DNA of 64,000 nt from Candidatus Cloacimonadales bacterium. GTDB lineage: Bacteria > Cloacimonadota > Cloacimonadia > Cloacimonadales > JAFGVF01. The stretch covers positions 2,924,752 to 2,988,751 of the forward strand of contig OY782781.1 of the NCBI GenBank assembly GCA_963678315.1. Reading direction: 5' to 3'. Both the position numbers and the translations under genes were made by a program. Under the pieces are notes generated by a model. It was given only the letters and a program-made list of their open reading frames with translations, was not told the DNA's origin and did no database searches. Positions 41,492 through 64,000 of this stretch are shown piece after piece. Every line of letters begins with the position of its first letter. The first letter of the stretch is position 1.

Positions 41492-41501
41492 GAGAAAATA
41501 A

Positions 41502-42140: not shown

Positions 42141-42151
42141 AGGAGGAATTA

Positions 42152-43183: not shown

Positions 43184-43195
43184 GAGGTAAATAAG

Positions 43196-43792
43196 ATGAC
43201 TTTACTCGGTCAAATTGTTGCGGTATTTTTTACGCTAGCAATATTCTCATTTCTCTATAAGGATAATCCAGCTTATAGATTTGCTGAATACCTCCTTGTA
43301 GGTGTATCAATGGGTTACGGTATTCCCCTAATTTGGGAACAAGCCTTTATGCCATTCGTTTATCAAAGACTATTTGTTGAACATAAATGGATCTTTATTA
43401 TTCCATGTCTATTCGGTATGTTATACTGGTTTAGATTCAGCAGAAACCTAGGTTGGTTATCTAGATATCCAATCGCTATCGGTATGGGTGCTGTTGGTAT
43501 GAGTGTTACTATGAGTATGAACTCTATGGTTCTTGTTCAAGTTAGACAAGCTATGGTTCCACTAGAAAACTTTAACTTATTCTTAGTTTTCTTAGGTACT
43601 ATTACTGTGCTTTTCTACTTCTTCTTCTCAAAAGCTCATACAGGACTCTACGGGAAGTTCTCTAAGATTGGTATCTGGTACATGATGATTGGTTTCGGTG
43701 CTTCATTCGGTTTTACCGTTATGGCTCGTATCTCTCTTCTTATCGGAAGACTTCAATTCTTAGCACAAACTTTCAGTGGTTGGTTCTCATAG
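43196..43792 (+). CDS. Uncharacterised integral membrane protein (cluster gene 4)
   Basis: TLAIFSFLYKDNP.YRFAE and MIGFGASFGFTVMARISLL motifs; hydrophobic. Confidence 0.8.
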   Translation: MTLLGQIVAVFFTLAIFSFLYKDNPAYRFAEYLLVGVSMGYGIPLIWEQAFMPFVYQRLFVEHKWIFIIPCLFGMLYWFRFSRNLGWLSRYPIAIGMGAVGMSVTMSMNSMVLVQVRQAMVPLENFNLFLVFLGTITVLFYFFFSKAHTGLYGKFSKIGIWYMMIGFGASFGFTVMARISLLIGRLQFLAQTFSGWFS

Positions 43793-46993: not shown

Positions 46994-47243
46994 TTTTCCT
47001 CCTAACTTTTAGGTTATATATTGTCTTTAAATAAGTTACAACTTAATTATTTTACGCATTCATTTCTAATAACTTATGCTATCTTGTCAATTAATATTTG
47101 GGAAAAACTTAACAATTCTCAAATGAACTCTTTGAATGCTAATTCTTGATTAATTTATGATAAATTTACTATCAATATTAATCATAAAAACACTTCTTAA
47201 CTTGAGACTGACAATACATTATTCGACTAATTCAACAAATAGT

Positions 47244-47271
47244 TTGACATCTAAACTAAAAAAGCTAAAGT
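47244..47271 (+). promoter_or_regulatory. Putative sigma70 promoter repeated in every cassette
   Basis: TTGACA, then 16-17 nt, then TAAAGT/TAACGT/TACGTT in all six leaders. Confidence 0.55.
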
Positions 47272-47302
47272 TTGCAATATTTTTTAATAGCAAGAGGTAA
47301 AC

Positions 47303-47434
47303 ATGAAAGAAAATGGGGTTTATATTTTAAACAAATTTGAAGTAGGACAATTCTACGCTAAAAATCATAACTTAAACTATGGGGCAAACAATCCTCATAA
47401 GTTATATATATATATATATACTTTAGAAATCTAG
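47303..47434 (+). CDS. Putative leader peptide ORF, cassette 1 (homologues at 50331-50471, 53406-53531, 56442-56561, 59516-59635, 62596-62715)
   Basis: AAGAGGT RBS followed by ATG; MKENGVYILNKFEVGQFYAKNHNLNYGANNPHKLYIYIYTLEI*; reads through a (TA)n tract. Confidence 0.5.
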   Translation: MKENGVYILNKFEVGQFYAKNHNLNYGANNPHKLYIYIYTLEI

Positions 47435-47450
47435 CTTTCCCATAAAAAAC

Positions 47451-47482
47451 GACTGAATTCAATGTGAGAGCTGAATTCAGTC
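47451..47482. promoter_or_regulatory. Perfect 11-bp inverted repeat conserved in all leaders
   Basis: GACTGAATTCA-N10-TGAATTCAGTC; also at 50477, 53548, 56586, 59660 and 62740. Confidence 0.75.
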
Positions 47483-47563
47483 CGTAATAAACACTACAAG
47501 TGTTGTGTTGAAATTAATCAACGCAACATTATTACAAAAATAAAAAAAGTAAAGGAAAATATT

Positions 47564-47926
47564 ATGAAAAAGATAATAATAATGTTGTTAGCCTTGTTGG
47601 CTATTGGGATAGTTAGTGCATATACATTAGTGATTAGAACTGATGTACCTGTAGATTTAACAAATTGGATGTATAGATACAACGATAATGGACCATATTA
47701 TCCATGTCCAAATCATGATGAACATTTATCACCTGGAGTTTATACTTATGAATTAGCTGCACCGCATTATAAATTTAACTATAAGTACTTTTCAGAAATA
47801 ACAGGGAATATGAGAACTGGAGTAAAATATTTAGATTTTAGTTCAACAGATGTTATAGAAATTGTGTTCAAAGGTAAACTTGGTATAACACCAATAGAAC
47901 CTGTGTTTCCACCAAGTGGACAATAA
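47564..47926 (+). CDS. Small secreted protein, cassette 1 (type A)
   Basis: Invariant signal MKKIIIMLLALLAIGIVSA, unique mature region, Pro-rich tail ending in Q. Confidence 0.85.
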   Translation: MKKIIIMLLALLAIGIVSAYTLVIRTDVPVDLTNWMYRYNDNGPYYPCPNHDEHLSPGVYTYELAAPHYKFNYKYFSEITGNMRTGVKYLDFSSTDVIEIVFKGKLGITPIEPVFPPSGQ

Positions 47927-47978
47927 TTATAAGTAATTACAAAGGGAGCTAATGCTCCCTTTGAATAAGGAGGAAGAT

Positions 47979-50183
47979 ATGTTAAAAAGACTATTTTTAT
48001 TAGTAATATTACTAGCTATTTTAAGTTTGAGTGCTGTTTTCGACTTAAGTTTAGAATCTGAGTTTAATACTTCGTCTAGAACTAGATGTTTGCACATGAG
48101 TATTGATGGAGATTACTTATGCTACAATAGTTTTCATGGACTACATATTATTGACCAAGACTTTAATGAATTTAATGAGATACCATTGTCCAATATTGAT
48201 GATTTTCAGATGTGCAACAATAATTTATATACATACACTGACCATGGGGAGCTTAATTCATACACAATAGATCTTTATAGGAACTATTTAACCAATAGTG
48301 GAGAATATAGATCTATAACATTTACCAATAGTTCAATGTGGCGAATGTCCAAGTGTAACAATGTTTTATTAATCAACTATTATGACTATGATAATCACGG
48401 ATATCGTACTCTGACTTTAGATTCCTACTTAGCTGTATCTCATATTGAATCTTTAGATGATTATAAATTTCTATCCAAAATTAATAATAGTGATTATATC
48501 TTAGCAAATAATGAGAATAATGATTCAATATGCATGTTCTCTATTTCATCTGAGGCAAATAATACTGTCGATATTATAGACTTGCCAGATAGTAACTATT
48601 ATGAAGGGAGTCTCTACAACAATATATTAGCATTAAGAAACCAAGAAAGTGTTGATTTTATAAATCTAGAGACAAATGAGACTTTCTACAACTATACTTA
48701 TGATGATGCCCTGAACTCATACAATGGTATCTATGTTGATGAGACTGTATTGATTTTTGCTACATACATTGACTCCAGATTTAAACTAAAGGTTGTTGAT
48801 ATTGCTTCAGGAGAACTTCTAATGTACAAGGATGTTAATGATCTAGTGAATCTGCAATATATGGAATTATCATTTTTATCAGAATTGTGTCAATGTGAGA
48901 ATGATTTATATTTAATTGCTAACAATCAACCGTTAATCAAACTACAAGTTAACAATGATGATATTGAGTTAGTTGATTATTTTAACAATGTTTACTCTCC
49001 TATACTAGGGACTTACAGCAATGAAAACTACTTTTATCATTGTAATATTCCAGAGCTACTTGTTACAGATATAAGTGACCCCTCAAATCCTGTTAACATA
49101 GAGCACAATCTCCCAGATGGTATATATCAATGGTATGATATAAATGAACAACTAACTGCTTTGCGATATAATCTTGATAATGGTATGCTATATCACTACA
49201 CAATAGAAAATAATGAAATAGTAAGCTCTGACTCATTAGTTAACCTATCTATTTTTCAAGATGACTATATGACCCCTTTAGATTGTAATGAAGAAAGAGT
49301 AATATATAAAAACTCAGAGGGGGTTAAAGCTGTTGATCTAATAGATCATTCGCTAATGTGGGAGTTAGATTATAACTCACCAGTTATGTTACAAGCAGTT
49401 ATTGGTGATTACTTATATGTTGGTGAATTTATGCACAATGATTATACAGTATATCAGTTTGATAATGAGTCTATTACATTTATTCAAGATTTCCATACTG
49501 ATAACATTGAGTTTGCTGATTTTTACACTCAAGATGAAATGTTAGTTGTTCATGGTTTTGAAGGTGGCTATTGCTATGATATCAGAGAAAATCCTGTACC
49601 GCAAGAGCCAATCTTAGAAGATGTTATAACTAACGTCAACAGTAATATTGTTTCATTTAACAATAGCAAGCTGTTTGTAGGGAATATACTACAAGATGGT
49701 CAAGAATTATCCAACTACTTGTGTTGTATCAATGAAGATGATGGAAACTTCTCTCTTATTGGAGCAATACCTGTAATGTATGAATACGTCAATGTAAGTT
49801 TAAATTACATCGACAATACAAACTTCAACATTATCTTTGATGGAAATGTAGGTTCTGCGATCTATTCATGTCATTTAACCCCCAACGGAAACTTTGAAGT
49901 TCAACCTGTTAATCTAGAATGTTCAAACTACCCTAATCCTTTTAATCCGCAAACGACTATTTCCTATAATATTGATAAAGCGTCAGATGTAGAGCTAACA
50001 ATCTATAATATTAAAGGTCAGAAAGTAAGAACACTTGTTGATGATCAACAAGAAGCAGGTAGACATGATATTGTTTGGGATGGTACAGATAGCAAGGGTA
50101 AGAAAGTAGCTTCAGGAACTTACCTCTATAAGGTAAAAGCTGATGACCAAGAAGTAGTAAATAAGATGTTAATGATTAAATAA
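47979..50183 (+). CDS. Large secreted protein (probable beta-propeller) with FlgD-Ig/T9SS-like CTD, cassette 1 (type A)
   Basis: AGGAGG RBS before ATG 47979, signal peptide, D(I/V)SD P repeats, NYPNPFNP CTD. Confidence 0.87.
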   Translation: MLKRLFLLVILLAILSLSAVFDLSLESEFNTSSRTRCLHMSIDGDYLCYNSFHGLHIIDQDFNEFNEIPLSNIDDFQMCNNNLYTYTDHGELNSYTIDLYRNYLTNSGEYRSITFTNSSMWRMSKCNNVLLINYYDYDNHGYRTLTLDSYLAVSHIESLDDYKFLSKINNSDYILANNENNDSICMFSISSEANNTVDIIDLPDSNYYEGSLYNNILALRNQESVDFINLETNETFYNYTYDDALNSYNGIYVDETVLIFATYIDSRFKLKVVDIASGELLMYKDVNDLVNLQYMELSFLSELCQCENDLYLIANNQPLIKLQVNNDDIELVDYFNNVYSPILGTYSNENYFYHCNIPELLVTDISDPSNPVNIEHNLPDGIYQWYDINEQLTALRYNLDNGMLYHYTIENNEIVSSDSLVNLSIFQDDYMTPLDCNEERVIYKNSEGVKAVDLIDHSLMWELDYNSPVMLQAVIGDYLYVGEFMHNDYTVYQFDNESITFIQDFHTDNIEFADFYTQDEMLVVHGFEGGYCYDIRENPVPQEPILEDVITNVNSNIVSFNNSKLFVGNILQDGQELSNYLCCINEDDGNFSLIGAIPVMYEYVNVSLNYIDNTNFNIIFDGNVGSAIYSCHLTPNGNFEVQPVNLECSNYPNPFNPQTTISYNIDKASDVELTIYNIKGQKVRTLVDDQQEAGRHDIVWDGTDSKGKKVASGTYLYKVKADDQEVVNKMLMIK

Positions 50184-50192
50184 TTCTGTTAG

Positions 50193-50217
50193 GAGCAGGC
50201 TTTTTAGTCTGCTCTTT
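50193..50217 (+). terminator. Cassette terminator (also ~53266, 56304, 59376, 62456)
   Basis: GAGCAGGCT-loop-AGTCTGCTC followed by TTT after every CTD gene. Confidence 0.75.
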
Positions 50218-50589
50218 AATTAATTTTGTTACAGTGAGATAACAAATTATTCGACTAAATCAATAAATAGTTTGACATCTAAATTAAAAATGCTAAAGTT
50301 TGCAATATGTTTTAATAGCAAGAGGTAAACATGAAAGAAAATGGGGTTTATATTTTAAACAAATTTGAAGTAGGACAATTCTACGCTAAAAATCATAACT
50401 TAAATTATGGGGCAAATAATCCTCATAAGCTATATATATATATATACTTTAGAAATCTAGCTTTCCCATAATAAACGACTGAATTCAATGTGAGAGCTGA
50501 ATTCAGTCCGTAATAAACACTACAAGTGTTGTGTTGAAATTAATCAACGCAACATTATTACAAAAATAAAAAAAATAAAGGAAAATATT

Positions 50590-50931
50590 ATGAAAAAGAT
50601 AATAATAATGTTGTTAGCCTTGTTGGCTATTGGGATAGTTAGTGCGAAAACAATACATATACACACAGATATGATAATTGATAACATAGCCGTATATAGA
50701 TACGACCATCTTGGCACCTGTAGTTTGTATAATACATATGGTAATTGTAAAGATATCAGTGGCCTACCTTCAGGAACATACAGAACAGTTATTGACGGAA
50801 AAACTATAATTGATCGTTTCCCTGTTACATGGGTTGAAGATAATATTTGGTTGATTACTGGCGATGAAGTTACTATTGAAAAATACTATGATACGGCGTC
50901 TGGTGATCCAGGAACAGGTAATGAACAATAA
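50590..50931 (+). CDS. Small secreted protein, cassette 2 (type B)
   Basis: Invariant signal peptide; ends GDPGTGNEQ. Confidence 0.85.
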   Translation: MKKIIIMLLALLAIGIVSAKTIHIHTDMIIDNIAVYRYDHLGTCSLYNTYGNCKDISGLPSGTYRTVIDGKTIIDRFPVTWVEDNIWLITGDEVTIEKYYDTASGDPGTGNEQ

Positions 50932-50987
50932 ATAAAGCATTCAGGGTAGATAATCTACCCTGAATTCTACACTTTTAAGGAGGATAA

Positions 50988-53258
50988 ATGGCTTTTTTTA
51001 GAATTTCAACTATCTTATTATTTTGTTTTTTAGCAGTTAGCTTATTTTGTAATGTAGATTTTGAGAGTTCCAATTATTTTGGAATTGCAGATTCACCTCA
51101 AAATTTTTTTAAAAGTATACATATGATGAACGACTTACTAATCTCAGAAACTGCATTTGGGTTAAATTTCAAACAAATTCATGAAGATGGTTCTCTAGAA
51201 AACTTGTGCTCTCTTAGATGTGACAGTCTTAGCAGCATTGTTGCATCCAATAATTATATAGGTATACATTATGGCCATTATAACGACCTAGATGATCTCT
51301 ACCATCTTGTAATCTATGACATTAGTGATGTAGATAATATCCATGAGTTATTCACAATTGATATCGATACATATTCTTTAGAACCAAATGCACATATAAG
51401 TAATAATATTATGGCAGTTAAGGTAAGTGAGTACGAGACTAAAATGTATAATATTGAAACAGGTCAGATTATAAATACTTCCACAACATATTACCCTGAA
51501 CGATATCAGAACAATTATAATGAAATAGGACTTTATCGAAACTTAAGCACTGGCCAATCTGTAGTGTGTAGATTGGAGCAAGATGGTTCATTAACAGAAT
51601 TAGGATCATTAGGAATTGGAAGATTTAAATTTGTAATTTCGAATAATAAACTTGCTGCCTGTAATTTTGATACTTATAAATTGCAACTATATGATTTAGA
51701 TGAAAATGATTACCTTTCTTCAATAGGAGAATTCACTTATGGTTATGAAATAAGTCAAATACCCACATTTTTCTATAAGGACGACTTGTTTGGCTACTAC
51801 CTTACAGAGAATAATGAAGGTTTCTATGATAGATTGATGGTTTATGATGTTTCAGATATGTCAGATATTAACTTAACAGGTGAATATAATATTTTTGATT
51901 TTGATACCATTAGATATAGCTGGTTTGTTGAAATCCAGCAAACTGAAAATTTTATTTATGTTTGCAACCAACCCTATGGTTTATATAAATTAGAGCTTAC
52001 GGATAGCTCTGCTCAAATTGGTGAAAATTATTTAGATAGAGGATATTCGGTTGTAAAAAACTATATTACAGATAATACTTTATTTAATGTTGGCAAAAAA
52101 GGCAAATATCAACTTTTCACCTATGACGTAACAAATGTAAACAATATCACAGAAACAGATAACTACTTTGAAGATAATTGTTTTTACTGGTTTTTTGACA
52201 ATGGAAACTACGTAATAAGTCTTAATAATAACACTTTATTACTGACACTATATAAAAAGATTGGTGAAAATTATGATCAGATATTAAATTTTGAAATAGA
52301 GAATATAGATTTGTTTAATTTGGATATGTTATACTTTGATGAAGATGAGCTTATCTTTTGTCATGAAGAAAGTACATATTATTATAAAATAGAGAACAAT
52401 GAAATGATACTACTAGATGAAGTATTTATTCCTGCTCAGTATGGTATTAATCGTATATATAAGTACTATCAAGGATATTTGTATGCTTTATCTAGGACTA
52501 GTAATTCTCTCAAGATTTATCATCTAGTAGACAATCAATTTGAATATGTTCATGATATTCAAGTAGAATATCAGGGCGGTCCTAGATATATTCTTCAAAG
52601 TGGTTCGCTTATAACAGTAAATGACTGCTATATTTATGATTTGGATATTGACCCAGTAAATCTTAATCATATATGGAATATTAATACAAGTATAATTAAT
52701 GGAACTGCTTCCAAAAAAGATAATACTATTATTTTTGTCGGTCATGATGAAGAAACGTATATGACAAGTCTTGAAAAGAATAAGCTTGTACAGATTTACG
52801 ATGTCAGTGATATTTCTACACCTGCAAAAGTTGGTTATATTGATGTCGGAGAATTTGTAATCAACGCAGATTTTTTACACTATGAAAGTGCCCAAGACTT
52901 TTCTATAATAGTTGAATTAGCTGGTGCAATGAAAGTATACTCCTGCCACATTACCCCCAACGGAGACTTTGAAGTTCAGCCTGTTAAGCTAGAATGTTCA
53001 AACTACCCTAATCCATTTAATCCGCATACAACTATTTCCTATAATATTGATAAAGCCTCAGATGTAGAGCTAACAATCTATAATATTAAAGGTCAGAAAG
53101 TAAGAACACTTGTTGATGATCAACAAGAAGCAGGTAGACATGATATTGTATGGGATGGTACAGATAGCAAGGGTAAGAAAGTAGCTTCAGGAACTTACCT
53201 TTATAAGGTAAAAGCTGATGACCAAGAAGTAGTAAATAAGATGTTAATGATTAAATAA
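50988..53258 (+). CDS. Large secreted CTD protein, cassette 2 (type B)
   Basis: 756 aa, signal peptide, YD(I/V)SD repeats, constant CTD. Confidence 0.88.
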   Translation: MAFFRISTILLFCFLAVSLFCNVDFESSNYFGIADSPQNFFKSIHMMNDLLISETAFGLNFKQIHEDGSLENLCSLRCDSLSSIVASNNYIGIHYGHYNDLDDLYHLVIYDISDVDNIHELFTIDIDTYSLEPNAHISNNIMAVKVSEYETKMYNIETGQIINTSTTYYPERYQNNYNEIGLYRNLSTGQSVVCRLEQDGSLTELGSLGIGRFKFVISNNKLAACNFDTYKLQLYDLDENDYLSSIGEFTYGYEISQIPTFFYKDDLFGYYLTENNEGFYDRLMVYDVSDMSDINLTGEYNIFDFDTIRYSWFVEIQQTENFIYVCNQPYGLYKLELTDSSAQIGENYLDRGYSVVKNYITDNTLFNVGKKGKYQLFTYDVTNVNNITETDNYFEDNCFYWFFDNGNYVISLNNNTLLLTLYKKIGENYDQILNFEIENIDLFNLDMLYFDEDELIFCHEESTYYYKIENNEMILLDEVFIPAQYGINRIYKYYQGYLYALSRTSNSLKIYHLVDNQFEYVHDIQVEYQGGPRYILQSGSLITVNDCYIYDLDIDPVNLNHIWNINTSIINGTASKKDNTIIFVGHDEETYMTSLEKNKLVQIYDVSDISTPAKVGYIDVGEFVINADFLHYESAQDFSIIVELAGAMKVYSCHITPNGDFEVQPVKLECSNYPNPFNPHTTISYNIDKASDVELTIYNIKGQKVRTLVDDQQEAGRHDIVWDGTDSKGKKVASGTYLYKVKADDQEVVNKMLMIK

Positions 53259-53660
53259 TTCTGAGAAGAGCAGGCTGTTTAGTCTGCTCTTTATCTAGGC
53301 TTATTTTATTAGAATAATTTTTTATTCGACCAATTCAATAAATAGTTTGACACATAATTTAAAAAAGCTTACGTTTGCAATATGTTTTAATAGCAAGAGG
53401 TAAACATGAAAGAAAATGGGGTTAATATTTTAAACAAATTTGAAGTAGGACAATTCTACGCTAAAAATCATAACCTAAACTATGGGGCGAATAACCCTCA
53501 TAAGTTATATATATATACTTTAGAAATCTAGCTTTCCCATAAAAAACGACTGAATTCAATGTCAGAGCTGAATTCAGTCCGTAATAAACACTACATGTGT
53601 TGTGTTGAAATTAATCAACGCAACATTATTACAAAAATAAAAAAAATAAAGGAAAATATT

Positions 53661-53984
53661 ATGAAAAAGATAATAATAATGTTGTTAGCCTTGTTGGCTA
53701 TTGGGATAGTTAGTGCGGATACTTTAGTTACTATACATACAGATGTTCAATCAACAATAACATATGATAAAAATTTTCCAAACCAATTTACTGGTGATGA
53801 ATGGTACAATCCTGAAATGCTAGATATTGGCTCATATACAGTACATATTCAATATATGAGCATTGAAGGAATTATGGTTACTTTTGATGATACTTTTTGG
53901 ATCTATGATAATACTCCTAGACTTGATTTAGAATACAACTTTATCACAGCAAAACCTGATCCTGGAACACCAATTAATCAATAA
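53661..53984 (+). CDS. Small secreted protein, cassette 3 (type C)
   Basis: Start set at MKKIII by homology (the ORF track begins at upstream ATG 53559); ends PDPGTPINQ. Confidence 0.85.
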   Translation: MKKIIIMLLALLAIGIVSADTLVTIHTDVQSTITYDKNFPNQFTGDEWYNPEMLDIGSYTVHIQYMSIEGIMVTFDDTFWIYDNTPRLDLEYNFITAKPDPGTPINQ

Positions 53985-54044
53985 CAAAAATAAAACGACC
54001 AAGTCACTTGATGGCTTGGTCGTAAAAATAAAAGGAGACAATTT

Positions 54045-56294
54045 ATGAGTAGATTAATGAAGATATTAACTTTATTATTATCTGTAGTAAATTTATTTAG
54101 TATTGTGGATTATAGCAAAATCAACACATTTAATATTCATGATCAAACATTATTTGTAAGTACTGAGTATATTAATTCTAACAATAAAGTGATTAAGATA
54201 ACTGATACATATTTTAAAATATATCAGATAAATGATGAAGGAGCCTTGATTCATAAGTTCAATATTGAAAGTACCATGCCTGCTTACGCAAGCATCAATG
54301 GTAAATATATGATAATTAGTGAAATTAATAGTGCTTTTGATTTTGAAAATCCTTATAAACATACTTTATATGACATTTCTGATATTGATAACCCACAGGC
54401 TGTACATACTCAATATTCCACAAAGAGGGAGAGTTTAATTTGTGGTACCTTTTATATTATTGCAGGTGTAGGTTCTTTAGATGTTTTTTCATTAAATGAT
54501 TATAGTTTTATAGAGAGATATGACGATTACAAACCTTATGATAACATAGAAGAGATAGGTAAATTTAGATTATGGAAACATTCAGATGAATCTATTCATA
54601 TATGTCATTTTGATGAAAATGGGAGTATTGTTTTTGACAAAGATTTAGAACAATGCTATGGCAATATTTGCGTATCAGGAGACTCTCTTTTAAATTGTTG
54701 TAGCGATTTTATCTACATCTATAATCTTGCAGACTCCTTAAATCATGTAGAAACATTATACTTTCCTAACAGTAAATCATTAAACTTCAAACCTTATTTT
54801 AATGGACAACGACTAGGCTTGATAAAAGATAACCCCAATCCATCCTTTAATGACAAGCTAGCAATCTATGATTTAGATGATACAGGTGAATTCAATTTAG
54901 TGTCTGAATATGATTTAATTGCTGATTCTCAATATGCCTGGGGAATGAACTCTTATGACTCTATGCAACATAACCAATATTACTATTTTGGTTTTGTTAT
55001 GTATGGCTATTATAAATTCAATATGGAAGATCTTGCCAATGAACCTGAGCTCATTGAACATCAAGAATTACCACTGAGCATCTCAATAAATGATAATATA
55101 ATGAATTATAATTACTTTAGAAACTTTGGTTATAACAAACAATATGATATATCTAATATAAATGATATAACAAGAATAGCTAATGCTGATTCTCTAGGAG
55201 AACGTTTATATTTTGGAGATGATTCGGAGCGGATGATTCTTAAAGATTGGAGAGATGGGACTATAAAACTTTACAGTTTAGACAATAGTCAATACAATCT
55301 AGTAACGACTCTTACTATTGAAGACAATCCATTCTTCTTTAATTTTGTTAATGTATTAAAGTGGGATGGTGTTGATTTAATCTATAGCCAAGCAGAGAAT
55401 TTATTTTGGAAAAGATATAATAATGGATCCTTCGAAGAGATAGATAGTTACACTGAGAACACGCTTGATTATTCTTGCCACTGGTTTTTCAATGAAAATT
55501 ATCTCTATAAACTTTATGAAAATGGGATATTAGAATCTTATAGTATAGAAAACAATCAATTTGAGATGTTAAGTTCTGTGCGTTGGGCTGGGCATGATGG
55601 TTCAATTCGTAAATATGGATTAGAGTGTGGCTTATTATATGCCACTAAGTATGATGGTAGCCATAAAATATATGATTTAAATGAAGACCCAATTGATTTT
55701 TCTGTAACCTTAGATTTGAATTCTAGCCTCTTAAATGGTGGAGTTCAAAAATATGGAGATTACTACATTTATCCTGGATCAGACAATGAAAACTATGTTA
55801 ATTTTTGGGGCTTTGAAAGCCTTAAATATATTAATATTTATAAAAAGCTAGGAAGTGACTTTGTTAGAGTTGGAGATATCTATAATGAGCATCAAATAGG
55901 AATTCTTCGTATAATACCTATAGCAGAAGATGATTTTTATATATTTGCTATAGGCTGTAATGGAACTCAGATATATTCCTGTCATACCACCCCCAACGGA
56001 GACTTTGAAGTTCAACCTGTTAAGCTAGAATGTTCAAACTACCCAAATCCATTTAATCCGCAAACAACTATTTCCTATAATATAGATAAAGCCTCAGATG
56101 TAGAACTTACTATCTATAATATTAAAGGTCAGAAAGTAAGAACTTTGGTTGATGATCAACAAGAAGCAGGTAGACATGATATTGTTTGGGATGGTGCAGA
56201 TAGCAAGGGTAAGAAAGTAGCTTCAGGAACTTACCTCTATAAGGTAAAAGCTGATGACCAAGAAGTAGTAAATAAGATGTTAATGATTAAATAA
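54045..56294 (+). CDS. Large secreted CTD protein, cassette 3 (type C)
   Basis: 749 aa, unique body, constant CTD. Confidence 0.88.
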   Translation: MSRLMKILTLLLSVVNLFSIVDYSKINTFNIHDQTLFVSTEYINSNNKVIKITDTYFKIYQINDEGALIHKFNIESTMPAYASINGKYMIISEINSAFDFENPYKHTLYDISDIDNPQAVHTQYSTKRESLICGTFYIIAGVGSLDVFSLNDYSFIERYDDYKPYDNIEEIGKFRLWKHSDESIHICHFDENGSIVFDKDLEQCYGNICVSGDSLLNCCSDFIYIYNLADSLNHVETLYFPNSKSLNFKPYFNGQRLGLIKDNPNPSFNDKLAIYDLDDTGEFNLVSEYDLIADSQYAWGMNSYDSMQHNQYYYFGFVMYGYYKFNMEDLANEPELIEHQELPLSISINDNIMNYNYFRNFGYNKQYDISNINDITRIANADSLGERLYFGDDSERMILKDWRDGTIKLYSLDNSQYNLVTTLTIEDNPFFFNFVNVLKWDGVDLIYSQAENLFWKRYNNGSFEEIDSYTENTLDYSCHWFFNENYLYKLYENGILESYSIENNQFEMLSSVRWAGHDGSIRKYGLECGLLYATKYDGSHKIYDLNEDPIDFSVTLDLNSSLLNGGVQKYGDYYIYPGSDNENYVNFWGFESLKYINIYKKLGSDFVRVGDIYNEHQIGILRIIPIAEDDFYIFAIGCNGTQIYSCHTTPNGDFEVQPVKLECSNYPNPFNPQTTISYNIDKASDVELTIYNIKGQKVRTLVDDQQEAGRHDIVWDGADSKGKKVASGTYLYKVKADDQEVVNKMLMIK

Positions 56295-56698
56295 TTCTGT
56301 TAGGAGCAGGCTTTTTAGTCTGCTCTTTAATTAATTTTGTTACATTGTCATAACAAATTATTCGACTAAATCAATAAATAGTTTGACATCTAAATTAAAA
56401 AAGCTAACGTTTGCAATATGTTTTAATAGCAAGAGGTAAACATGACTAAAAATGGGGTTTATATTTTAAACAAATTTGAAGTAGGACAATTCTACGCTAA
56501 AAATCATAACCTAAACTATGGGGCGAATAACCCTCATAAGTTATATATATATATACTTTAGAAATCTAGCTTTCCCATAAAAAACGACTGAATTCAATGT
56601 CAGAGCTGAATTCAGTCCGTAATAAACACTACAAGTGTTGTGTTGAAATTAATCAACGCAACATTATTACAAAAATAAATAAAGTAAAGGAAAATATT

Positions 56699-57040
56699 AT
56701 GAAAAAGATAATAATAATGTTGTTGGCCTTGTTGGCTATTGGGATAGTTAGTGCGAAAACAATACATATACACACAGATATGATAATTGATAACATTGAT
56801 GTGTATAGATACGACCATCTTGGCACCTGTACTTTGTTTAATTCACATGGTACAAGTAAAGATATTAGTGGCTTACCTTCAGGAGTATACAAAACAGTTA
56901 TTGAAGGAAAAACTATGATTGATGGTTTCCCTGTTACATGGATTGAAGATAATATTTGGTTGATTACTGGAGATGAAGTTACTATTGAAAAATACTATGA
57001 TACGGCGTCTGGTGATCCAGGAACAGGTAATGAACAATAA
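56699..57040 (+). CDS. Small secreted protein, cassette 4 (type B')
   Basis: Close paralogue of 50590-50931. Confidence 0.85.
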   Translation: MKKIIIMLLALLAIGIVSAKTIHIHTDMIIDNIDVYRYDHLGTCTLFNSHGTSKDISGLPSGVYKTVIEGKTMIDGFPVTWIEDNIWLITGDEVTIEKYYDTASGDPGTGNEQ

Positions 57041-57097
57041 ATAAACTATTCAGGGTAGATATATCTACCCTGAATTCTACACTTTTAAGGAGGATAA

Positions 57098-59368
57098 ATG
57101 ACTTTTTTTAGAATTTCAACTATCTTAGTATTTTGTTTTTTAGCAGTTAGCTTATTTTGTAATGTAGATTTTGAGAGTTCCAATTATTTTGGAATTGCAG
57201 ATTCACCTCAAACTTTTTTTAAAAGTATACATATGATGAACGACTTACTAATCTCAGAAACTGCATTTGGGTTGAATTTCAAACAAATTCATGAAGATGG
57301 TTCTCTTGAAAACTTATGTTCAGTTAGATGTGATAGTCTTAACTACTTTGTTGCATCTAATCATTATGTAGCTACTTTTCATAATAGATATAACAACCTC
57401 GATGATCAATACCATCTTATAATATATGATATCAGCGATTTAAATAATATCCATGATTTATTCACCATTGATCTTGATACATATTATTTAGAACCAAATG
57501 CTCATATAAGTAATAATATTATGGCAGTTAAGGTAAGTGAGTACGAGACTAAAATGTATAATATTGAAACAGGTCAGATTATAAATACTTCCACAACATA
57601 TTACCCTGAAAGCTATCAGAATAATTATAATGAAAAAGGACTTTATCGAAATTGGAACACTGGCCAATCTGTAGTATGTAGATTGGAGCAAGATGGTTCA
57701 TTAACAGAATTAGGATCATTAGGAATTGGTAGTTTTAAATTTGTAATTTCTAATAATAAACTTGCTGCCTGTAATTTTGATACTTATACATTTCAGCTAT
57801 ATGATTTAGACGAAAATGATTACCTTTCTCCAATAGGAGAATTCACTTATGGTTATGAAATAAGTCAAATACCCACATTTTTCTATAAAGACGACTTGTT
57901 TGGCTACTACCTTACAGAGAATAATGAAGGTTTCTATGATAGATTGATGGTTTATGATGTTTCAGATATGTCAGATATTAACTTAACAGGTGAATATAAT
58001 ATTTTTGATTTTGATACCATTAGATATAGCTGGTTTGTTGAAATCCAGCAAACTGAAAATTTTATTTATGTTTGCAACCAACCCTATGGTTTATATAAAT
58101 TAGAGCTTACGGATAGCTCTGCTCAAATTGGTGAAAATTATTTAGATAGAGGATACTCGGTTGTAAAAAATTATATTACAGATAATACTTTATTTAATGT
58201 TGGCAAAAAAGGTAAATATCAACTTTTCACCTATGACGTAACAAATGTAAATAATATCACAGAAACAGATAATTACTTTGAAGATAATTGTTTTTACTGG
58301 TTTTTTGACAATGGAAACTTAGTAATAAGTCTTAATAATAACACTTTATTACTGACACTATATAAAAAGATTGGTGAAAATTATGATCAGATATTAAATT
58401 TTGAAATAGAGAATATAGATTTGTTTAATTTGGATATGTTATACTTTGATGAAGATGAGCTTATCTTTTGTCATGAAGAAAGTACATATTATTATAAAAT
58501 AGAGAACAATGAAATGATACTACTAGATGAAGTATTTATTCCTGCTCAGTATGGTATTAATCGTATATATAAGTACTATCAAGGATATTTGTATGCTTTA
58601 TCTAGGACTAGTAATTCTCTCAAGATTTATCATCTAGTAGACAATCAATTTGAATATGTTCATGATATTCAAGTAGAATATCAGGGCGGTTCTAGATACA
58701 TTCTTCAAAGTGGTTCGCTTATAACAGTAAATGACTGCTATATTTATGATTTGGATATTGACCCAGTAAATCTTAATCATATATGGAATATTAATACAAG
58801 TATAATTAATGGAACAGCTTCCAAAAAAGATAATACTATTATTTTTGTCGGTCATGATGAAGAAACGTATATGACAAGTCTTGAAAGGAATAAGCTTGTA
58901 CAGATTTACGATGTCAGTGATATTTCTACACCTGCAAAAGTTGGTTATATTGATGTCGGAGAATTTGTAATTAATGTAGATTTTTTACACTATGAAAGTG
59001 CCCAAGACTTTTCTATAATAGTTGAATTAGCTGGTGCAATGAAAGTATACTCCTGTCACATTACCCCCAACGGAGACTTTGAAGTTCAGCCTGTTAAGCT
59101 TGAATGTTCAAACTACCCTAATCCTTTTAATCCTGAAACGACTATTTCCTATAATATTGATAAAGCCTCAGATGTAGAGCTAACAATCTATAATATTAAA
59201 GGTCAGAAAGTAAGAACACTTGTTGATGATCAACAAGAAGCAGGTAGACATGATATTGTATGGGATGGTACAGATAGCAAGGGTAAGAAAGTAGCTTCAG
59301 GAACTTACCTTTATAAGGTAAAAGCTGATGACCAAGAAGTAGTAAATAAGATGTTAATGATTAAATAA
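57098..59368 (+). CDS. Large secreted CTD protein, cassette 4 (type B')
   Basis: Near-identical to 50988-53258, with differences concentrated in the first ~250 aa. Confidence 0.88.
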   Translation: MTFFRISTILVFCFLAVSLFCNVDFESSNYFGIADSPQTFFKSIHMMNDLLISETAFGLNFKQIHEDGSLENLCSVRCDSLNYFVASNHYVATFHNRYNNLDDQYHLIIYDISDLNNIHDLFTIDLDTYYLEPNAHISNNIMAVKVSEYETKMYNIETGQIINTSTTYYPESYQNNYNEKGLYRNWNTGQSVVCRLEQDGSLTELGSLGIGSFKFVISNNKLAACNFDTYTFQLYDLDENDYLSPIGEFTYGYEISQIPTFFYKDDLFGYYLTENNEGFYDRLMVYDVSDMSDINLTGEYNIFDFDTIRYSWFVEIQQTENFIYVCNQPYGLYKLELTDSSAQIGENYLDRGYSVVKNYITDNTLFNVGKKGKYQLFTYDVTNVNNITETDNYFEDNCFYWFFDNGNLVISLNNNTLLLTLYKKIGENYDQILNFEIENIDLFNLDMLYFDEDELIFCHEESTYYYKIENNEMILLDEVFIPAQYGINRIYKYYQGYLYALSRTSNSLKIYHLVDNQFEYVHDIQVEYQGGSRYILQSGSLITVNDCYIYDLDIDPVNLNHIWNINTSIINGTASKKDNTIIFVGHDEETYMTSLERNKLVQIYDVSDISTPAKVGYIDVGEFVINVDFLHYESAQDFSIIVELAGAMKVYSCHITPNGDFEVQPVKLECSNYPNPFNPETTISYNIDKASDVELTIYNIKGQKVRTLVDDQQEAGRHDIVWDGTDSKGKKVASGTYLYKVKADDQEVVNKMLMIK

Positions 59369-59772
59369 TTCTGAGAAGAGCAGGCTGTTTAGTCTGCTCT
59401 TTATCTAGGCTTATTTTATTAGAATAATTTTTTATTCGACCAATTCAATAAATAGTTTGACACATAATTTAAAAAAGCTTACGTTTGCAATATGTTTTAA
59501 TAGCAAGAGGTAAACATGAAAGAAAATGGGGTTAATATTTTAAACAAATTTGAAGTAGGACAATTCTACGCTAAAAATCATAAATTAAACTATGGGGCAA
59601 ACAATCCTCATAATTTATATATATATATACTTTAGAAATCTAGCTTTCCCATAAATAACGACTGAATTCAATGTGAGAGCTGAATTCAGTCCGTAATAAA
59701 CACTACAAGTGTTGTGTTGAAGTTAATCAACGCAACATTATTACAAAAATAAAAAAAGTAAAGGAAAATATT

Positions 59773-60126
59773 ATGAAAAAGATAATAATAATGTTGTTGA
59801 CCTTGTTGGCTATTGGGATAGTTAGTGCTGCTTCTATACATTTATATACTGATATGACTGTGGATAATTGTGCAGAAAGATTAGAAACTTCAGCTGGAAA
59901 TTGGACACCCTGGAGGGACTGCAATTTCCACAGAGATGGTAACCATTATGTAATTGAGGTAACTAATTGGGTTGCAGAAGTTGAAATTATTGGTCATACA
60001 TTTCTATCCGGTACACACACTATCAATGTTGATCCATATTTTTATCATGATGGTGATGTTATAGTAATTGAAAGGTATTATGATAAAATTCCTGGTGGTG
60101 GAGATGACACACCAATAACACAATAG
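59773..60126 (+). CDS. Small secreted protein, cassette 5 (type D)
   Basis: Same signal peptide (one A-to-T change); ends PGGGDDTPITQ. Confidence 0.85.
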   Translation: MKKIIIMLLTLLAIGIVSAASIHLYTDMTVDNCAERLETSAGNWTPWRDCNFHRDGNHYVIEVTNWVAEVEIIGHTFLSGTHTINVDPYFYHDGDVIVIERYYDKIPGGGDDTPITQ

Positions 60127-60177
60127 ATTAATCAGCTAGCAGTATAAATTATACTGCTAGCTTACTTTGGAGAAAAA

Positions 60178-62448
60178 ATGCAGATAAAATTCACATTTAT
60201 AGCATTGATTTTATTTATAGCTACAGTTATGTTTGGGCTATCTATTGACAATAACTTTGATTTAAACGGAATTTATAATATTAATAAATATTCCATGAAT
60301 AGTTGTAATTGGAGATCACAATTTATCAAAGATAATAAAATATTTTATAATAATCAGTACGGTATTCATTTATTTGACTTAGAAGAAGAGTCTTTTGGTA
60401 ATATTACAACTTATAGTTCAGAAAAGCATTTTTCTCCTTATGATTATTATAATGGAATTATTGCTGAGTATGATGTCAATCAAGCTACTAACTGTTTTAA
60501 GGTTGATTTTTACACTTTTGATGATGAGAACGAAATTAATTATGTATCAACCCTCGAGCTAAGTCCTTTCGTAAACTTTATGGGAGTACAACTTTATAAT
60601 GATTTTTATGTAGTTGCAGGAGAAAACAATAGTAGCTATATTCGTTCATACGAATCAAATCAGCTTTTAAAACATCAACAAGGATTAATACCTAATAATA
60701 ATCTCAGATATGATGACAACCATGGTGTGTTCTATGATTGTTTTACTGAGCATTCCTATTTTTGCCAGGTATCAAGTGATTCAATAGAGGTTATATATGA
60801 CCTAGGAGAAAGTTCACGTGATATAAAAATTTGTGGTGACAAGTTGATAAGTTATAGTAATTATGAAATTGATTTTTATGATATCTCGGATGGTTATAAT
60901 TATGTAAATACAATGCTTTTAACTCATGGAATAAACCTAGAAGGTTGTTTCTTTAATGGTGACTTGCTAGGATTTGTAAGTAGAGATTTCACTATACCAT
61001 CAAAAATAATTTTTAGACTATATGATACTAGTGATTTAAGCAATGTTTCATTAATTTCGACAAAAGTATTGAAGGAGTTTCCTTCTGAATTTTATTGTAA
61101 TCAAACTATGGTAAGTTCTGAACAAGAGCAAATATTATCTATCAATAATAATATTTATATCTTTGGAACTGGCTTTTATCAAGTACTGAATATTGAAGGA
61201 AATTCTGTTAATATAAGTGATGTTAGCTCTTATGGTCATTTATCAGATCAATGCCATAAAATATCTCCATCTATTTTGTATTGTACAAGGTTTGAAAATC
61301 AAACTTATACTCAAGTATATGATTTTACAAATGATGACAACGTAACAATAAACCAGTTATCAGACATTAGTGACCGCCTATCTTGTTTTAGTGATAATAA
61401 TGAATATATAGCTGGTAAAAACTTTAGTGATTGTTGTATAAATCTTTACCACCAATCTAACAATGATTTGGAATATCTTGATTCTTTCTCACTAGGGGAC
61501 CAATCAACAGAAATTACTAGTGTGCAAATTGTTAAGTGGGATGGCACAAGACTTATATATCGTTCTGATGAGCTATTGTATTGTTATAGTTATCAAAATC
61601 ATGAGTTTCAACAAGAATGGACCTACTCAATAAACTCATCGAATCCGTGGTGGGTTTATGGACTAACCTACTTAGATTACATATACCTATTTGATATGAC
61701 TGATAAAGATGCCACAGTTTTACAATTAGAAGAATCTTCATACAATGTATTGTATGAAGATTCCTACAACTCAGAATTAACACATGGAAGATATGGACTT
61801 AGTGATGGTATTTTAACGATAAATGATAAAGCAATAGACTTACAAAGTGACCCTGTAAATTTAACTCATGAGATAGAACTAGATATTGTTGATCTTGATA
61901 GTACTGTAAAAAAATGTGGAGATTATCTACTTTATTGTGGAAGAAATAATAATTCCTTTTCTCCAGAAGACTATGATATTGTTCATATCTATAAGTTGAT
62001 AAATGATGACTACCACGAAGTTGGCTATATTCCAATTCAATGGTATTGTAATAGTGTTGATATGTTCTTATCTGATAATGAAGACAATTTTAAAGTATTT
62101 GTTTCAACCTCTGAATGTAACTTAATCTACTCCTGCCACATTACCCCCAACGGAGACTTTGAAGTTCAACCTGTTAATCTAGAATGTTCAAACTACCCAA
62201 ATCCATTTAATCCTGAAACGACTATTTCCTATAATATAGATAAAGCCTCAGATGTAGAACTTACAATCTATAATATTAAAGGTCAGAAAGTAAGAACACT
62301 TGTTGATGATCAACAAGAAGCAGGTAGACATGATATTGTATGGGATGGTACAGATAGCAAGGGTAAGAGAGTAGCCTCAGGAACTTACCTCTATAAGGTA
62401 AAAGCTGATGACCAAGAAGTAGTAAATAAAATGCTAATGATTAAATAA
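60178..62448 (+). CDS. Large secreted CTD protein, cassette 5 (type D)
   Basis: 756 aa, unique body, constant CTD. Confidence 0.88.
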   Translation: MQIKFTFIALILFIATVMFGLSIDNNFDLNGIYNINKYSMNSCNWRSQFIKDNKIFYNNQYGIHLFDLEEESFGNITTYSSEKHFSPYDYYNGIIAEYDVNQATNCFKVDFYTFDDENEINYVSTLELSPFVNFMGVQLYNDFYVVAGENNSSYIRSYESNQLLKHQQGLIPNNNLRYDDNHGVFYDCFTEHSYFCQVSSDSIEVIYDLGESSRDIKICGDKLISYSNYEIDFYDISDGYNYVNTMLLTHGINLEGCFFNGDLLGFVSRDFTIPSKIIFRLYDTSDLSNVSLISTKVLKEFPSEFYCNQTMVSSEQEQILSINNNIYIFGTGFYQVLNIEGNSVNISDVSSYGHLSDQCHKISPSILYCTRFENQTYTQVYDFTNDDNVTINQLSDISDRLSCFSDNNEYIAGKNFSDCCINLYHQSNNDLEYLDSFSLGDQSTEITSVQIVKWDGTRLIYRSDELLYCYSYQNHEFQQEWTYSINSSNPWWVYGLTYLDYIYLFDMTDKDATVLQLEESSYNVLYEDSYNSELTHGRYGLSDGILTINDKAIDLQSDPVNLTHEIELDIVDLDSTVKKCGDYLLYCGRNNNSFSPEDYDIVHIYKLINDDYHEVGYIPIQWYCNSVDMFLSDNEDNFKVFVSTSECNLIYSCHITPNGDFEVQPVNLECSNYPNPFNPETTISYNIDKASDVELTIYNIKGQKVRTLVDDQQEAGRHDIVWDGTDSKGKRVASGTYLYKVKADDQEVVNKMLMIK

Positions 62449-62852
62449 ATATGTGAAGAGCAGGCTGTTTAGTCTGCTCTTTAATTAATTTTGTTACATT
62501 GTCAAAATAAATTAACCGACTAATTCAATAAATAGTTTGACATCTAAATTAAAAAAGCTAACGTTTGCAATATGTTTTAATAGCAAGAGGTAAACATGAC
62601 TAAAAATGGGGTTTATATTTTAAACAAATTTGAAGTAGGACAATTATACGCTAAAAATCATAACTTAAACTATGGGGCAAACAATCCTCATAAGTTATAT
62701 ATATATATACTTTAGAAATCTAGCTTTCCCATAAAAAAAGACTGAATTCAATGTGAGACCTGAATTCAGTCCGTAATAAACACTACAAGTGTTGTGTTGA
62801 AATTAATCAACGCAACATTATTACAAAAATAAAAAAAGTAAAGGAAAATATT

Positions 62853-63197
62853 ATGAAAAAGATAATAATAATGTTGTTGGCCTTGTTGGCTATTGGGATA
62901 GTTAGTGCGAAAACAATACATATACACACAGATATGATAATTGATAATGCAGTATTATATAGATATGAAAATTACAATATTCTTCATTATGTCAGAACTT
63001 ACACAGGTAATCTCCACGAGATAACTGTTGATCAAGCTGCTGTATATAAACTTGAGATTAATGGAAAAACTTTAATTGATGGTTTCCCTGTTAAATGGGT
63101 TGAAGATGATATTTGGTTAATAACTGGCGATGAAGTTACTATTGAAAAATACTATGATACGACGTCTGGTGATCCAGGAACAGGTAATGAACAATAA
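62853..63197 (+). CDS. Small secreted protein, cassette 6 (type B'')
   Basis: B-type N- and C-terminal segments with a replaced central segment. Confidence 0.85.
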   Translation: MKKIIIMLLALLAIGIVSAKTIHIHTDMIIDNAVLYRYENYNILHYVRTYTGNLHEITVDQAAVYKLEINGKTLIDGFPVKWVEDDIWLITGDEVTIEKYYDTTSGDPGTGNEQ

Positions 63198-63254
63198 ATA
63201 AACTATTCAGGGTAGATATATCTACCCTGAATTCTACACTTTTAAGGAGGATAA

Positions 63255-64000
63255 ATGACTTTTTTTAGAATTTCAACTATCTTAGTATTTTGCTTTTTTA
63301 CATTTAGCTTATTTAGTAATGTAGATTTTGAAAGTTCCGATTATTTCGGAATTTCAGATTCTCCTCTAAATTACAACAAAAGTATGTTTGTCAGAAATAA
63401 TCAATTAATCTCAGAAACAGCATTTGGAATAAATTTTAAACAAATAAATGGTGATGGTTCTCTAGAAAACTTGTGCTCTCTTAGATGTGACAGTCTTAGC
63501 AGTTTTGTTGCATCTAATAATTATATAGGTATATATTATGGTCATTATAACGACCTAGATGATCTCTACCATCTTGTAATCTATGATATTAGTGATTTAA
63601 ATAATATCCATGAGTTATTCACAATTGATATTGATACATATAATTTAGAACCAAATGCTCATATAAGTAATAGTATTATGGCAGTTAGGGTGAGTGAATA
63701 TGAGACTAAAATGTATAATCTTGAAACAGGTCAGATTATAAATACTTCTACGACATATTACCCTGAAAGCTATCAGAATAATTATAATGAAAAAGGACTT
63801 TATCGAAATTGGAACACTGGCCAATCTGTAGTATGTAGATTGGAGCAAGATGGTTCATTAACAGAATTAGGATCATTAGGAATTGGAAGATTTAAATTTG
63901 TAATTTCTAATAATAAATTAGCTGCCTGTAATTTTGATACTTATAAATTGCAACTATATGATTTAGACGAGAATAATACTCTTTCTCAAATTGGTGAATT
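63255..64000 (+). CDS. Large secreted protein, cassette 6 (type B''), truncated by the window edge
   Basis: AGGAGG RBS, MTFFRISTILVFCF..., homologous to 50988 and 57098, open to the window end. Confidence 0.85.
   Translation, partial: MTFFRISTILVFCFFTFSLFSNVDFESSDYFGISDSPLNYNKSMFVRNNQLISETAFGINFKQINGDGSLENLCSLRCDSLSSFVASNNYIGIYYGHYNDLDDLYHLVIYDISDLNNIHELFTIDIDTYNLEPNAHISNSIMAVRVSEYETKMYNLETGQIINTSTTYYPESYQNNYNEKGLYRNWNTGQSVVCRLEQDGSLTELGSLGIGRFKFVISNNKLAACNFDTYKLQLYDLDENNTLSQIGE

Follow-up and report, generated by a model that had tools for sequence, protein, structure and literature searches.

A tandem array of two-gene cassettes with near-identical ends and diverged payloads in a Candidatus Cloacimonadales bacterium: a probable recombining surface-protein array

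The DNA analyzed here, referred to as the window, is the final 64 kb (64,000 nucleotides) of the single 2,988,751-bp contig of a Candidatus Cloacimonadales bacterium (assembly GCA_963678315.1, contig OY782781.1), and it ends in a tandem array of units that each encode one small and one large protein with predicted export signals. Our results make it quite probable that these tandem two-gene operons have ends that are homogenized by recombination, and that whole cassettes are duplicated, lost, reordered and exchanged through the ends they share. The 5' end of a unit consists of the promoter, the leader and the signal peptide of the small protein, and the 3' end of the C-terminal domain (CTD) of the large protein and the terminator. 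We propose that recurrent gene conversion and unequal crossing-over would hold these two ends near-identical within a genome, while the middles would represent old, strongly diverged paralog lineages. The shared ends would double as crossover sites for the duplication, loss, reordering and interspecies exchange of cassettes, and crossovers within them would always keep the frame with the export and sorting signals. We classify the array as a concerted, recombining surface-protein array, with an unusual two-gene payload, interspecies exchange, and a leader that combines an upstream open reading frame (uORF) with a (TA)n tract.

The array extends from position 47210 to the end of the window and over the first 1,540 bases of the contig. 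It crosses the contig end and its sixth unit terminates at genome position 1539/1540, from which we take the replicon to be circular and the array to be whole. It comprises exactly six direct units (starting at 47210, 50238, 53313, 56349, 59423 and 62503 of the window) of 3,028 to 3,092 bp, which bears out the at least six cassettes of one architecture claimed by the initial annotation. Each unit consists, in this order, of a sigma-70-like site (TTGACA, 16 nt, TAA(A/C)GT), a leader of ~290 nt, a small gene of 107 to 120 codons, a large gene of 743 to 756 codons and a terminator-like hairpin, and all six bear the same promoter-like site, leader and start signals. The payload types follow one another as A-B-C-B-D-B. 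A whole-genome search found no further member of the array family elsewhere in the genome. The complete large proteins of units 1 to 5 are of the uniform length first noted (~735 to 756 amino acids), with 743, 756, 749, 756 and 756 residues, and the sixth is interrupted at the contig junction. Exactly at this junction, a 14-nt tandem duplication at the window-equivalent positions 64003-64016 (genome 3-16), which is a probable untrimmed circularization overlap or artifact, divides the sixth large gene, leaving one frame of 259 codons and another of 473.

The segment between successive payloads, a constant block of ~770 bp, proved as near-identical at the DNA level as had been claimed (93 to 100% between units). 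When block 49878-50645 was compared by BLAST with the whole genome, five full copies were found (93.5 to 100% identity), and two half-copies delimit the array: a 5' one at its start, from promoter to signal peptide, and a 3' one at its close, consisting of the CTD. The remaining CTDs of the genome match it at 72% identity or less, save two fragments of 30 to 42 nt. The opening half-block corresponds, at 96% identity, to positions 361-768 in the reference block, and the likeness of unit 1 to the other units begins ~25 nt upstream of the -35 element. In windows of 60 alignment columns, the constant block is 86 to 100% identical in all 15 unit pairs, whereas payload columns of differing types are mostly 10 to 55% identical, and their DNA-level alignment reaches only 20 to 50%. 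Both sharp edges that had been described were found: identity stops at the Ala codon that closes the signal peptide MKKIIIMLLALLAIGIVSA (...GIVSA), and it restarts ~six codons before the TPNG(D/N)FEV motif of the CTD linker (near 49860, 52935, 55971, 59045 and 62125). The payloads between these edges are indeed highly divergent, as first noted, but they are not unrelated: they are full-length paralogs with 21 to 25% amino acid identity outside the CTD (33% over 789 columns between the B and C large proteins when the CTD is included). The synonymous divergence (dS) of the CTD between units is 0.07 to 0.27, whereas the payload DNA is no longer alignable.

Type B occurs three times. The type B small proteins are 88% and 71% identical to one another, and the three copies are mosaics of diverged patches: in alignment columns 180-360, units 2 and 4 differ at 37 sites and units 2 and 6 at 13, and columns 720-990 display the opposite pattern. 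The ratio of nonsynonymous to synonymous divergence (dN/dS) between the B copies is ~0.24, so that there is no indication of diversifying selection on them. All three B units also carry a 12-bp palindromic hairpin between the small and large genes (50939-50965, 57048-57075 and 63205-63232), directly before the Shine-Dalgarno site of the large gene, which could act as a partial terminator or processing site that sets the ratio of small to large protein.

Phylogenetic trees of 20 large proteins from seven genomes were incongruent between the conserved and variable segments. The CTD tree requires six changes of genome label, which is the minimum and a value as low as none of 200 shuffles attained; the payload tree requires 13, against a shuffled mean of 13.2, and 121 of 200 shuffles were as low. 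CTDs thus group by genome and payloads do not, and this conflict indicates concerted evolution of the ends. The type C payload scores 228 to 266 bits against proteins of the sister genus and at most 96 bits against the non-C payloads of its own genome, and the constant/variable identity profile is repeated in two sister-genus genomes (G005 and G011). Together with the trees and the CTD dS, these results indicate that the payload lineages are old and that the ends have been homogenized repeatedly within each genome.

In the sister genus, related arrays have one to four units and occupy at least two other chromosomal positions, and the order and content of payloads were different in each of the seven genomes examined (A-B-C-B-D-B in this genome, C-A-D2-D1 in G005, A-C-insert-D2 in G007, A-D-C in G003, D1-C-C in G011, and a single C in both G001 and G009). 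The two C-type payloads of G011 (locus L019, 2941-9255, contig C6) share 100% identity, a sign of very recent duplication. Two further contigs of this genome (C55 and C199) carry three more leader copies, so that it holds at least six units. The arrays of G005, G007 and G001, which are three sister species, lie at one orthologous locus, where cassettes are more alike between species than the DNA that flanks them. Between G005 and G007, flanking core DNA is 70.6 to 83.7% identical, cassette C 96.7% (over 2,775 nt), D2 96.2% (over 2,260 nt) and A 71.0%. The corresponding values are 71.8 to 78.7% for the flanks and 94.9% (over 2,293 nt) for cassette C between G007 and G001, and 75.0 to 80.6% and 95.1% between G005 and G001. 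Selection cannot account for this excess because synonymous and intergenic sites are included. The 96.7% tract extends from near the start of the large gene to the end of the signal peptide of the next unit, that is, to the far edge of the constant block. These patterns indicate that species have recently exchanged entire cassettes by crossing over in the blocks they share, and both the varying order (seven of seven genomes) and the end of the G005/G007 tract fit rearrangement between genomes with a breakpoint in a conserved segment.

The initial annotation had regarded the constant blocks as homology arms through which payloads are swapped, duplicated or deleted. Over evolutionary time this is supported by the grouping of CTDs by genome, the three copies of B, the identical pair in G011, the differing order in all seven genomes and the excess of cassette over flank identity; a dedicated or rapid shuffling mechanism found no support. 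Several points weigh against the interpretation that we favor. The best cross-genus scores of A, B and D are only 36, 99 and 125 bits, the tree tool warned of long branches, and signal peptides were assigned by eye alone. The constant blocks are 93 to 100% identical rather than identical and the CTD dS reaches 0.27, so that homogenization was not very recent, and part of the conservation of the CTD and the structured leader is due to purifying selection. Some of the related assemblies are fragmented, and there is a small chance that assemblers switched at shared repeats in the relatives, against which the identity of 95 to 97% rather than 100% argues. Contigs from public runs break at the constant blocks and are uninformative on order, and nothing was observed within a population.

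The products of the large genes are most likely surface-displayed or released binding proteins, presumably exported via type IX secretion (T9SS). Each of the four large proteins scanned exceeds the curated cutoffs for a type A T9SS sorting domain (TIGR04183, 37.9 to 39.2 bits against 23; PF18962, 32.4 to 35.9 against 27; FlgD_ig, 55.3 to 57.7 against 27), and their N termini, judged hydrophobic by eye, are predicted signal peptides. The genome encodes SprA (517.4 bits summed; cutoff, 200) and the PorU sortase (573.6 bits; cutoff, 420), along with dozens of further CTD-bearing frames; the best PorV-like match, with 131.8 bits, lies under the cutoff of 250. The type C payload was modeled with AlphaFold from an alignment of 19 sequences, and the resulting all-beta model has a mean predicted local distance difference test (pLDDT) score of 82.1. 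Its residues ~10-316 and ~315-624 each align to 7-bladed propellers (Z ~19, ~275 residues, 3.1 to 3.8 Å), and the whole model matches tandem WD40 proteins (Foldseek E, 1e-17). The large protein is thus modeled as two 7-bladed beta-propellers followed by the T9SS CTD. PorZ, which we take to have the same two-propeller-plus-CTD layout, was absent among the best 50 Foldseek/VIA matches listed, and we draw no conclusion from this. A sequence profile search of the PDB with the payload alignment returned WD-repeat matches only (E ~0.05).

The family appears to be small. A profile search of 1.84 billion cluster representatives returned only 16 full-length relatives at E <1e-30, beyond which the matches were at the level of repeats (E, 1e-13 to 1e-5), and a word-indexed search with payload B gave two matches only, the paralog in the same genome and one relative at 87%. 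Scans of metagenomes with protein B and with a 28-nt word of the leader gave no matches, nor did a scan of genome contigs with protein C. Of ten remote matches scanned, nine had LVIVD above the cutoff and five had Por_Secre_tail. LVIVD propeller T9SS cargo (PF08309 with PF18962) resembles the large proteins in length (~700 to 750 amino acids), in its beta-propeller repeats and in its type A CTD, and differs in that the window proteins stay below the LVIVD cutoff (type A, 16.5 bits against 20.2; no match in the other three scanned).

The small proteins belong to no Pfam or NCBIfam family. They share an N-terminal xIxIxTD motif and a C-terminal DPGTPIxQ tail, and a model with five strands (pLDDT, 74.1; two of five models above 60) had no Foldseek match in the PDB at E <=0.001. 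An Atlas feature search placed them closest to unnamed clusters (0.83 to 0.85), with CarboxypepD_reg-like clusters at 0.77 or less as leads only. Small and large types remain paired across genomes wherever the small gene is present, which suggests that the two proteins are cognate partners; a prediction of the type C complex (both proteins as alignments) scored 0.00 in two runs without controls and is silent on binding. In the relatives, small genes are found in various states of decay. That of unit d of G005 (L013, 14448-15261) is frameshifted after the signal peptide, that of G007 (L015, 12834-15210) is truncated and followed by a 445-codon open reading frame (ORF) without a Pfam family, and that of G001 (L020, 7374-7823) has lost its stop and extends into the large gene; G005, G007 and G003 also have several large genes that lack both small gene and leader.

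The constant block is more than a homology arm, as the leader within it is a conserved, structured regulatory region. All 17 leaders compared, from seven genomes, have a common layout of TTGACA, 16 nt, TAnnnT, a Shine-Dalgarno site and a uORF of 39 to 68 codons, the 3' end of which lies in or just after a (TA)4-12 tract. From the ATG of the uORF to the tract, the distance is 100 nt in all six units here and 113 nt in 9 of 11 leaders of the sister genus (118 and 109 nt in the other two), and it persists despite many substitutions. These are mostly nonsynonymous (0 synonymous against 14 in G003 a/b), which suggests that the act and extent of uORF translation count for more than the peptide. The number of TA copies (9, 8, 6, 7, 7 and 7 in units 1 to 6; 4 against 12 in G011) decides which of three stop codons the uORF uses, and all three classes are occupied. 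Only eight tracts of (TA)6 or longer exist in the 2.99-Mb genome, and six of them are the array leaders.

Downstream of the tract, five of five leaders fold into the same two hairpins (z-scores, -4.2 to -6.4; unit 2 element, -4.28). A covariance model built solely from sister-genus leaders recovers all six leaders of the window (38.7 to 45.9 bits; next match, E 0.25). Four stem pairs of hairpin 1 are altered on both sides between the genera; within the sister genus covariation is weak, with one of 18 stem pairs so altered. In a search at the family level, the element was present in seven of seven sister-genus genomes and absent from all four searched in a third genus. The sister genus gave 17 matches, 12 of them inside the arrays examined, and the other five are in G010 and on contigs C55 and C199 of G011. 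An Rfam scan of the array at E <=1 gave two chance-level matches only, both on the opposite strand, and the leader element has no Rfam family. In units 3 and 4 (53559-53660 and 56597-56698), the loop of hairpin 1 has a G-to-C change that abolishes the stop after an upstream ATG, and as a result the small-gene frame begins 34 codons sooner; the remaining four units read ATG TGA here.

This leader raises the possibility that each cassette is a contingency locus, in which slippage of the (TA)n tract that ends the uORF would switch it independently of the others. Every gain or loss of TA would shift the uORF stop among three positions, upstream of or inside hairpin 1, and would thereby alter downstream transcription or translation; the repeat number may set how near the terminating leader ribosome gets to hairpin 1, and the (TA)n leader may thus tune or switch its cassette. 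This would complement the recombining array rather than exclude it. Consistent with such a switch are the layout common to all 17 leaders, each with a repeat tract whose length differs between copies, also among units of one genome, as in simple sequence repeat contingency loci; the fixed distance from ATG to tract; the occupation of all three stop classes; the concentration of long TA tracts in the array; and the two conserved hairpins 3' of the tract. There are precedents as well: 5' untranslated repeats that act via RNA structure in Haemophilus influenzae hmw (PMC12721329) and uORF-dependent Rho attenuation (PMC12360218). On the other hand, no length heterogeneity was seen within a population, although the contigs could not have displayed any. 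The mostly nonsynonymous changes leave only the length and position of the uORF as apparently constrained, 4 to 9 TA copies are short for efficient slippage, stops in all three frames are expected by chance at 33% G+C, and the hairpin stems are nearly invariant in the sister genus. Alternatively, the tract may be neutral, or it may serve as a series of Ile (AUA) and Tyr (UAU) codons by which tRNA charging is sensed. We regard independent switching as a tentative and fairly unlikely idea. A two-tier mode of T9SS surface diversification in this uncultured anaerobe, in which cassettes are traded via the ~770-bp blocks and in addition are switched independently by (TA)n with three states per cassette, is rather unlikely. 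In hmw1A (PMC12721329), the tract likewise lies within the long structured 5' leader of a surface-protein gene, but there a heptamer repeat forms one arm of a hairpin that is cut by RNase III. Here the tract is a TA dinucleotide repeat that closes a conserved uORF, with two separate hairpins downstream, and switching is only a candidate. A limited literature search found no described repeat that acts by moving a uORF stop codon.

With regard to the machinery behind the recombining array, the pathway would be general recombination of the RecA type, without a dedicated enzyme. The initial annotation had noted no recombinase in the part visible to it, and the same holds for the 11 flanking ORFs that we scanned (3.5 to 10.5 kb upstream and 0 to 10.4 kb downstream, including the region beyond the window end), among which there was no recombinase, integrase, transposase or reverse transcriptase family; genes elsewhere in the genome were not searched for a recombinase. 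Eight of these ORFs belong to ordinary or uncharacterized families and three to none. All long repeats are direct, and a search for inverted repeats of at least 18 nt found none beyond local hairpins, TA runs and low-identity matches. Programmed, high-frequency shuffling by a dedicated recombinase or retroelement, comparable to shufflons, Mycoplasma vsp/vsa or diversity-generating retroelements, would explain the sharp module edges, the in-frame constant blocks and an order that differs in every genome examined. It is nevertheless very improbable, as it is opposed by the direct orientation of the repeats and the flanking ORFs, by the ordinary rates at which orthologous payloads evolve (C-type branches of 0.02 to 0.03 between sister species; dN/dS of ~0.24 for B) and by the promoter-like site of each unit, which leaves no single expression site. 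Given repeats that are only direct, the lack of a recombinase family among the flanking ORFs and ordinary payload rates, general homologous recombination is the economical reading.

Public sequencing runs were available as assembled contigs only (Logan), in which uncovered parts are not evidence of absence; listed contig joints (20 to 36 nt on the shorter side, mostly 20 to 24) were left out. In run X2, payload contigs of A, C and D match the window exactly at a depth of ~40, and pieces of B have depths of 68 to 115. Runs X3 and X5, from a second study, differ from the window by 10 of 2,326 nt in A, by ~1% in D, by 0 to 12 differences in pieces of B and by ~3.5% in C (32/941, 24/669 and 33/956), and run X1 by ~0.5% in A and 2 to 5.5% in D. 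Cassettes of the same species thus diverge unevenly in contigs from two other studies (A, ~0.4 to 0.5%; C, ~3.5%), which points in the same direction as cassette movement. An assembly artifact of the ~770-bp repeats, whether of the array itself or of its unit order and copy number, is scarcely credible: although the array spans a junction at which the 14-nt duplication breaks the sixth large gene, and short-read contigs break at every constant block, the depths in X2 fit about three copies of B against single copies of A, C and D, specific sites distinguish all six constant blocks and all three B copies from one another, and the architecture recurs independently in the single-contig or near-complete genomes G001, G003, G005 and G007.

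Conserved ends with variable middles that recombine are also found in Helicobacter pylori babA/babB, in the Mycoplasma vsp/vlp lipoproteins, which have a conserved 5' untranslated region and signal peptide, and in Borrelia vmp, which has upstream and downstream homology sequences. In these systems, conserved export or expression sequences guide gene conversion or cassette replacement. Their hosts are pathogens under immune selection, and several of these systems rely on one expression site or on a site-specific recombinase. In contrast, the present array has a promoter-like site and a leader in each unit and a paired-gene payload, and no recombinase was found among its flanking ORFs. It likewise differs from the silent-cassette type of Borrelia vmp/vls, with a single expression site and promoterless donors, and from shufflons and other invertible systems, with an adjacent recombinase and inverted repeats; here, no recombinase family matched the 11 flanking ORFs and no long inverted repeat was found.

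The closest described case is the lpl cluster of Staphylococcus aureus (Tsuru and Kobayashi 2008, PMC2568036). In these tandem lipoprotein paralogs, conserved and variable segments alternate, and crossovers are proposed to occur in the conserved segment that each ORF contains. Adjacent segments have conflicting phylogenies, and the evolutionary unit does not coincide with the ORF. The deletions, duplications, apparent conversions and translocations between genomes are explained there by unequal crossing-over, by circle excision and reintegration and by exchange between strains (PMC2568036). The lpl conserved segment lies in the middle of the ORF and its variable unit spans the intergenic region, which is the reverse of the present array (PMC2568036). 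Compared with what is described there, the present array also has a two-gene payload, another secretion route, phylum and fold, and evidence of interspecies exchange.

TABLE 1 Features of the array by window position
Feature	Position	Strand	Remarks
Opening half-block	47210..47620	+	Promoter-like site (-35 TTGACA at 47244), leader, 19-codon signal peptide of small gene 1
uORF, unit 1	47303..47434	+	43 codons; ends after (TA)9 at 47403-47420; Shine-Dalgarno AAGAGG
uORFs, units 2-6	50331-50471, 53406-53531, 56442-56561, 59516-59635, 62596-62715	+
Two-hairpin leader element, unit 1	47419..47527	+	Covariance model
Two-hairpin leader elements, units 2-6	50445-50553, 53516-53624, 56554-56662, 59628-59736, 62708-62816	+
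Small protein type A, predicted secreted	47564..47926	+	120 aa; shared signal peptide MKKIIIMLLALLAIGIVSA; no Pfam/NCBIfam family
Large protein type A	47952..50183	+	743 aa; modeled double propeller + T9SS CTD; true start probably Met10
Constant block 1/2	49860..50646	+	CTD, terminator hairpin 50191-50216, -35 at 50272, leader, signal peptide
Further constant blocks	52935-53717, 55971-56755, 59045-59829, 62125-62909	+
Small protein type B, predicted secreted	50590..50931	+	113 aa; other B copies 56699-57040, 62853-63197
Large protein type B	50988..53258	+	756 aa; second copy 57098-59368, 95% aa identity
Small protein type C, predicted secreted	53661..53984	+	107 aa from conserved start
Large protein type C	54045..56294	+	749 aa; payload behind the structure model
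Small protein type D, predicted secreted	59773..60126	+	117 aa
Large protein type D	60178..62448	+	756 aa
Large protein, third B copy	63255..64000	+	Leaves window, resumes at genome 1-1539; frame broken at contig junction

For the type A large gene, the listed start (47952-47978) lies nine codons upstream of a Met that opens a typical signal peptide, MLKRLFLLVILL, and the real start is probably at 47979. The array sits among housekeeping genes, with the gene for pyruvate phosphate dikinase adjacent upstream and those for a branched-chain amino acid carrier, a glycosyltransferase, ApbE, FolE2 and an M16 peptidase downstream. Just 5' of the dikinase gene, the region 38630-43792 encodes a 953-amino-acid protein, the C-terminal domain of which is DUF6754; three ORFs without a Pfam match (212, 343 and 198 amino acids) come next.

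In this array, the unit of evolution would be neither the gene nor the operon but a payload that lies between export, sorting and regulatory sequences common to all units. The T9SS cargo genes of this little-studied, uncultured lineage seem to be traded between species as in-frame modules without mobile-element machinery. For those who assemble and annotate metagenome-assembled genomes, the locus is a warning, as short-read contigs break at each constant block and the contig junction breaks one gene. The array also provides a small, defined family of paired proteins, a modeled double propeller and a partner of ~95 amino acids, for structural and binding work. The leader element, with its uORF, TA tract and two hairpins, could be a new kind of switch and, if this is true, six independently switched cassettes would generate combinatorial surface phenotypes.

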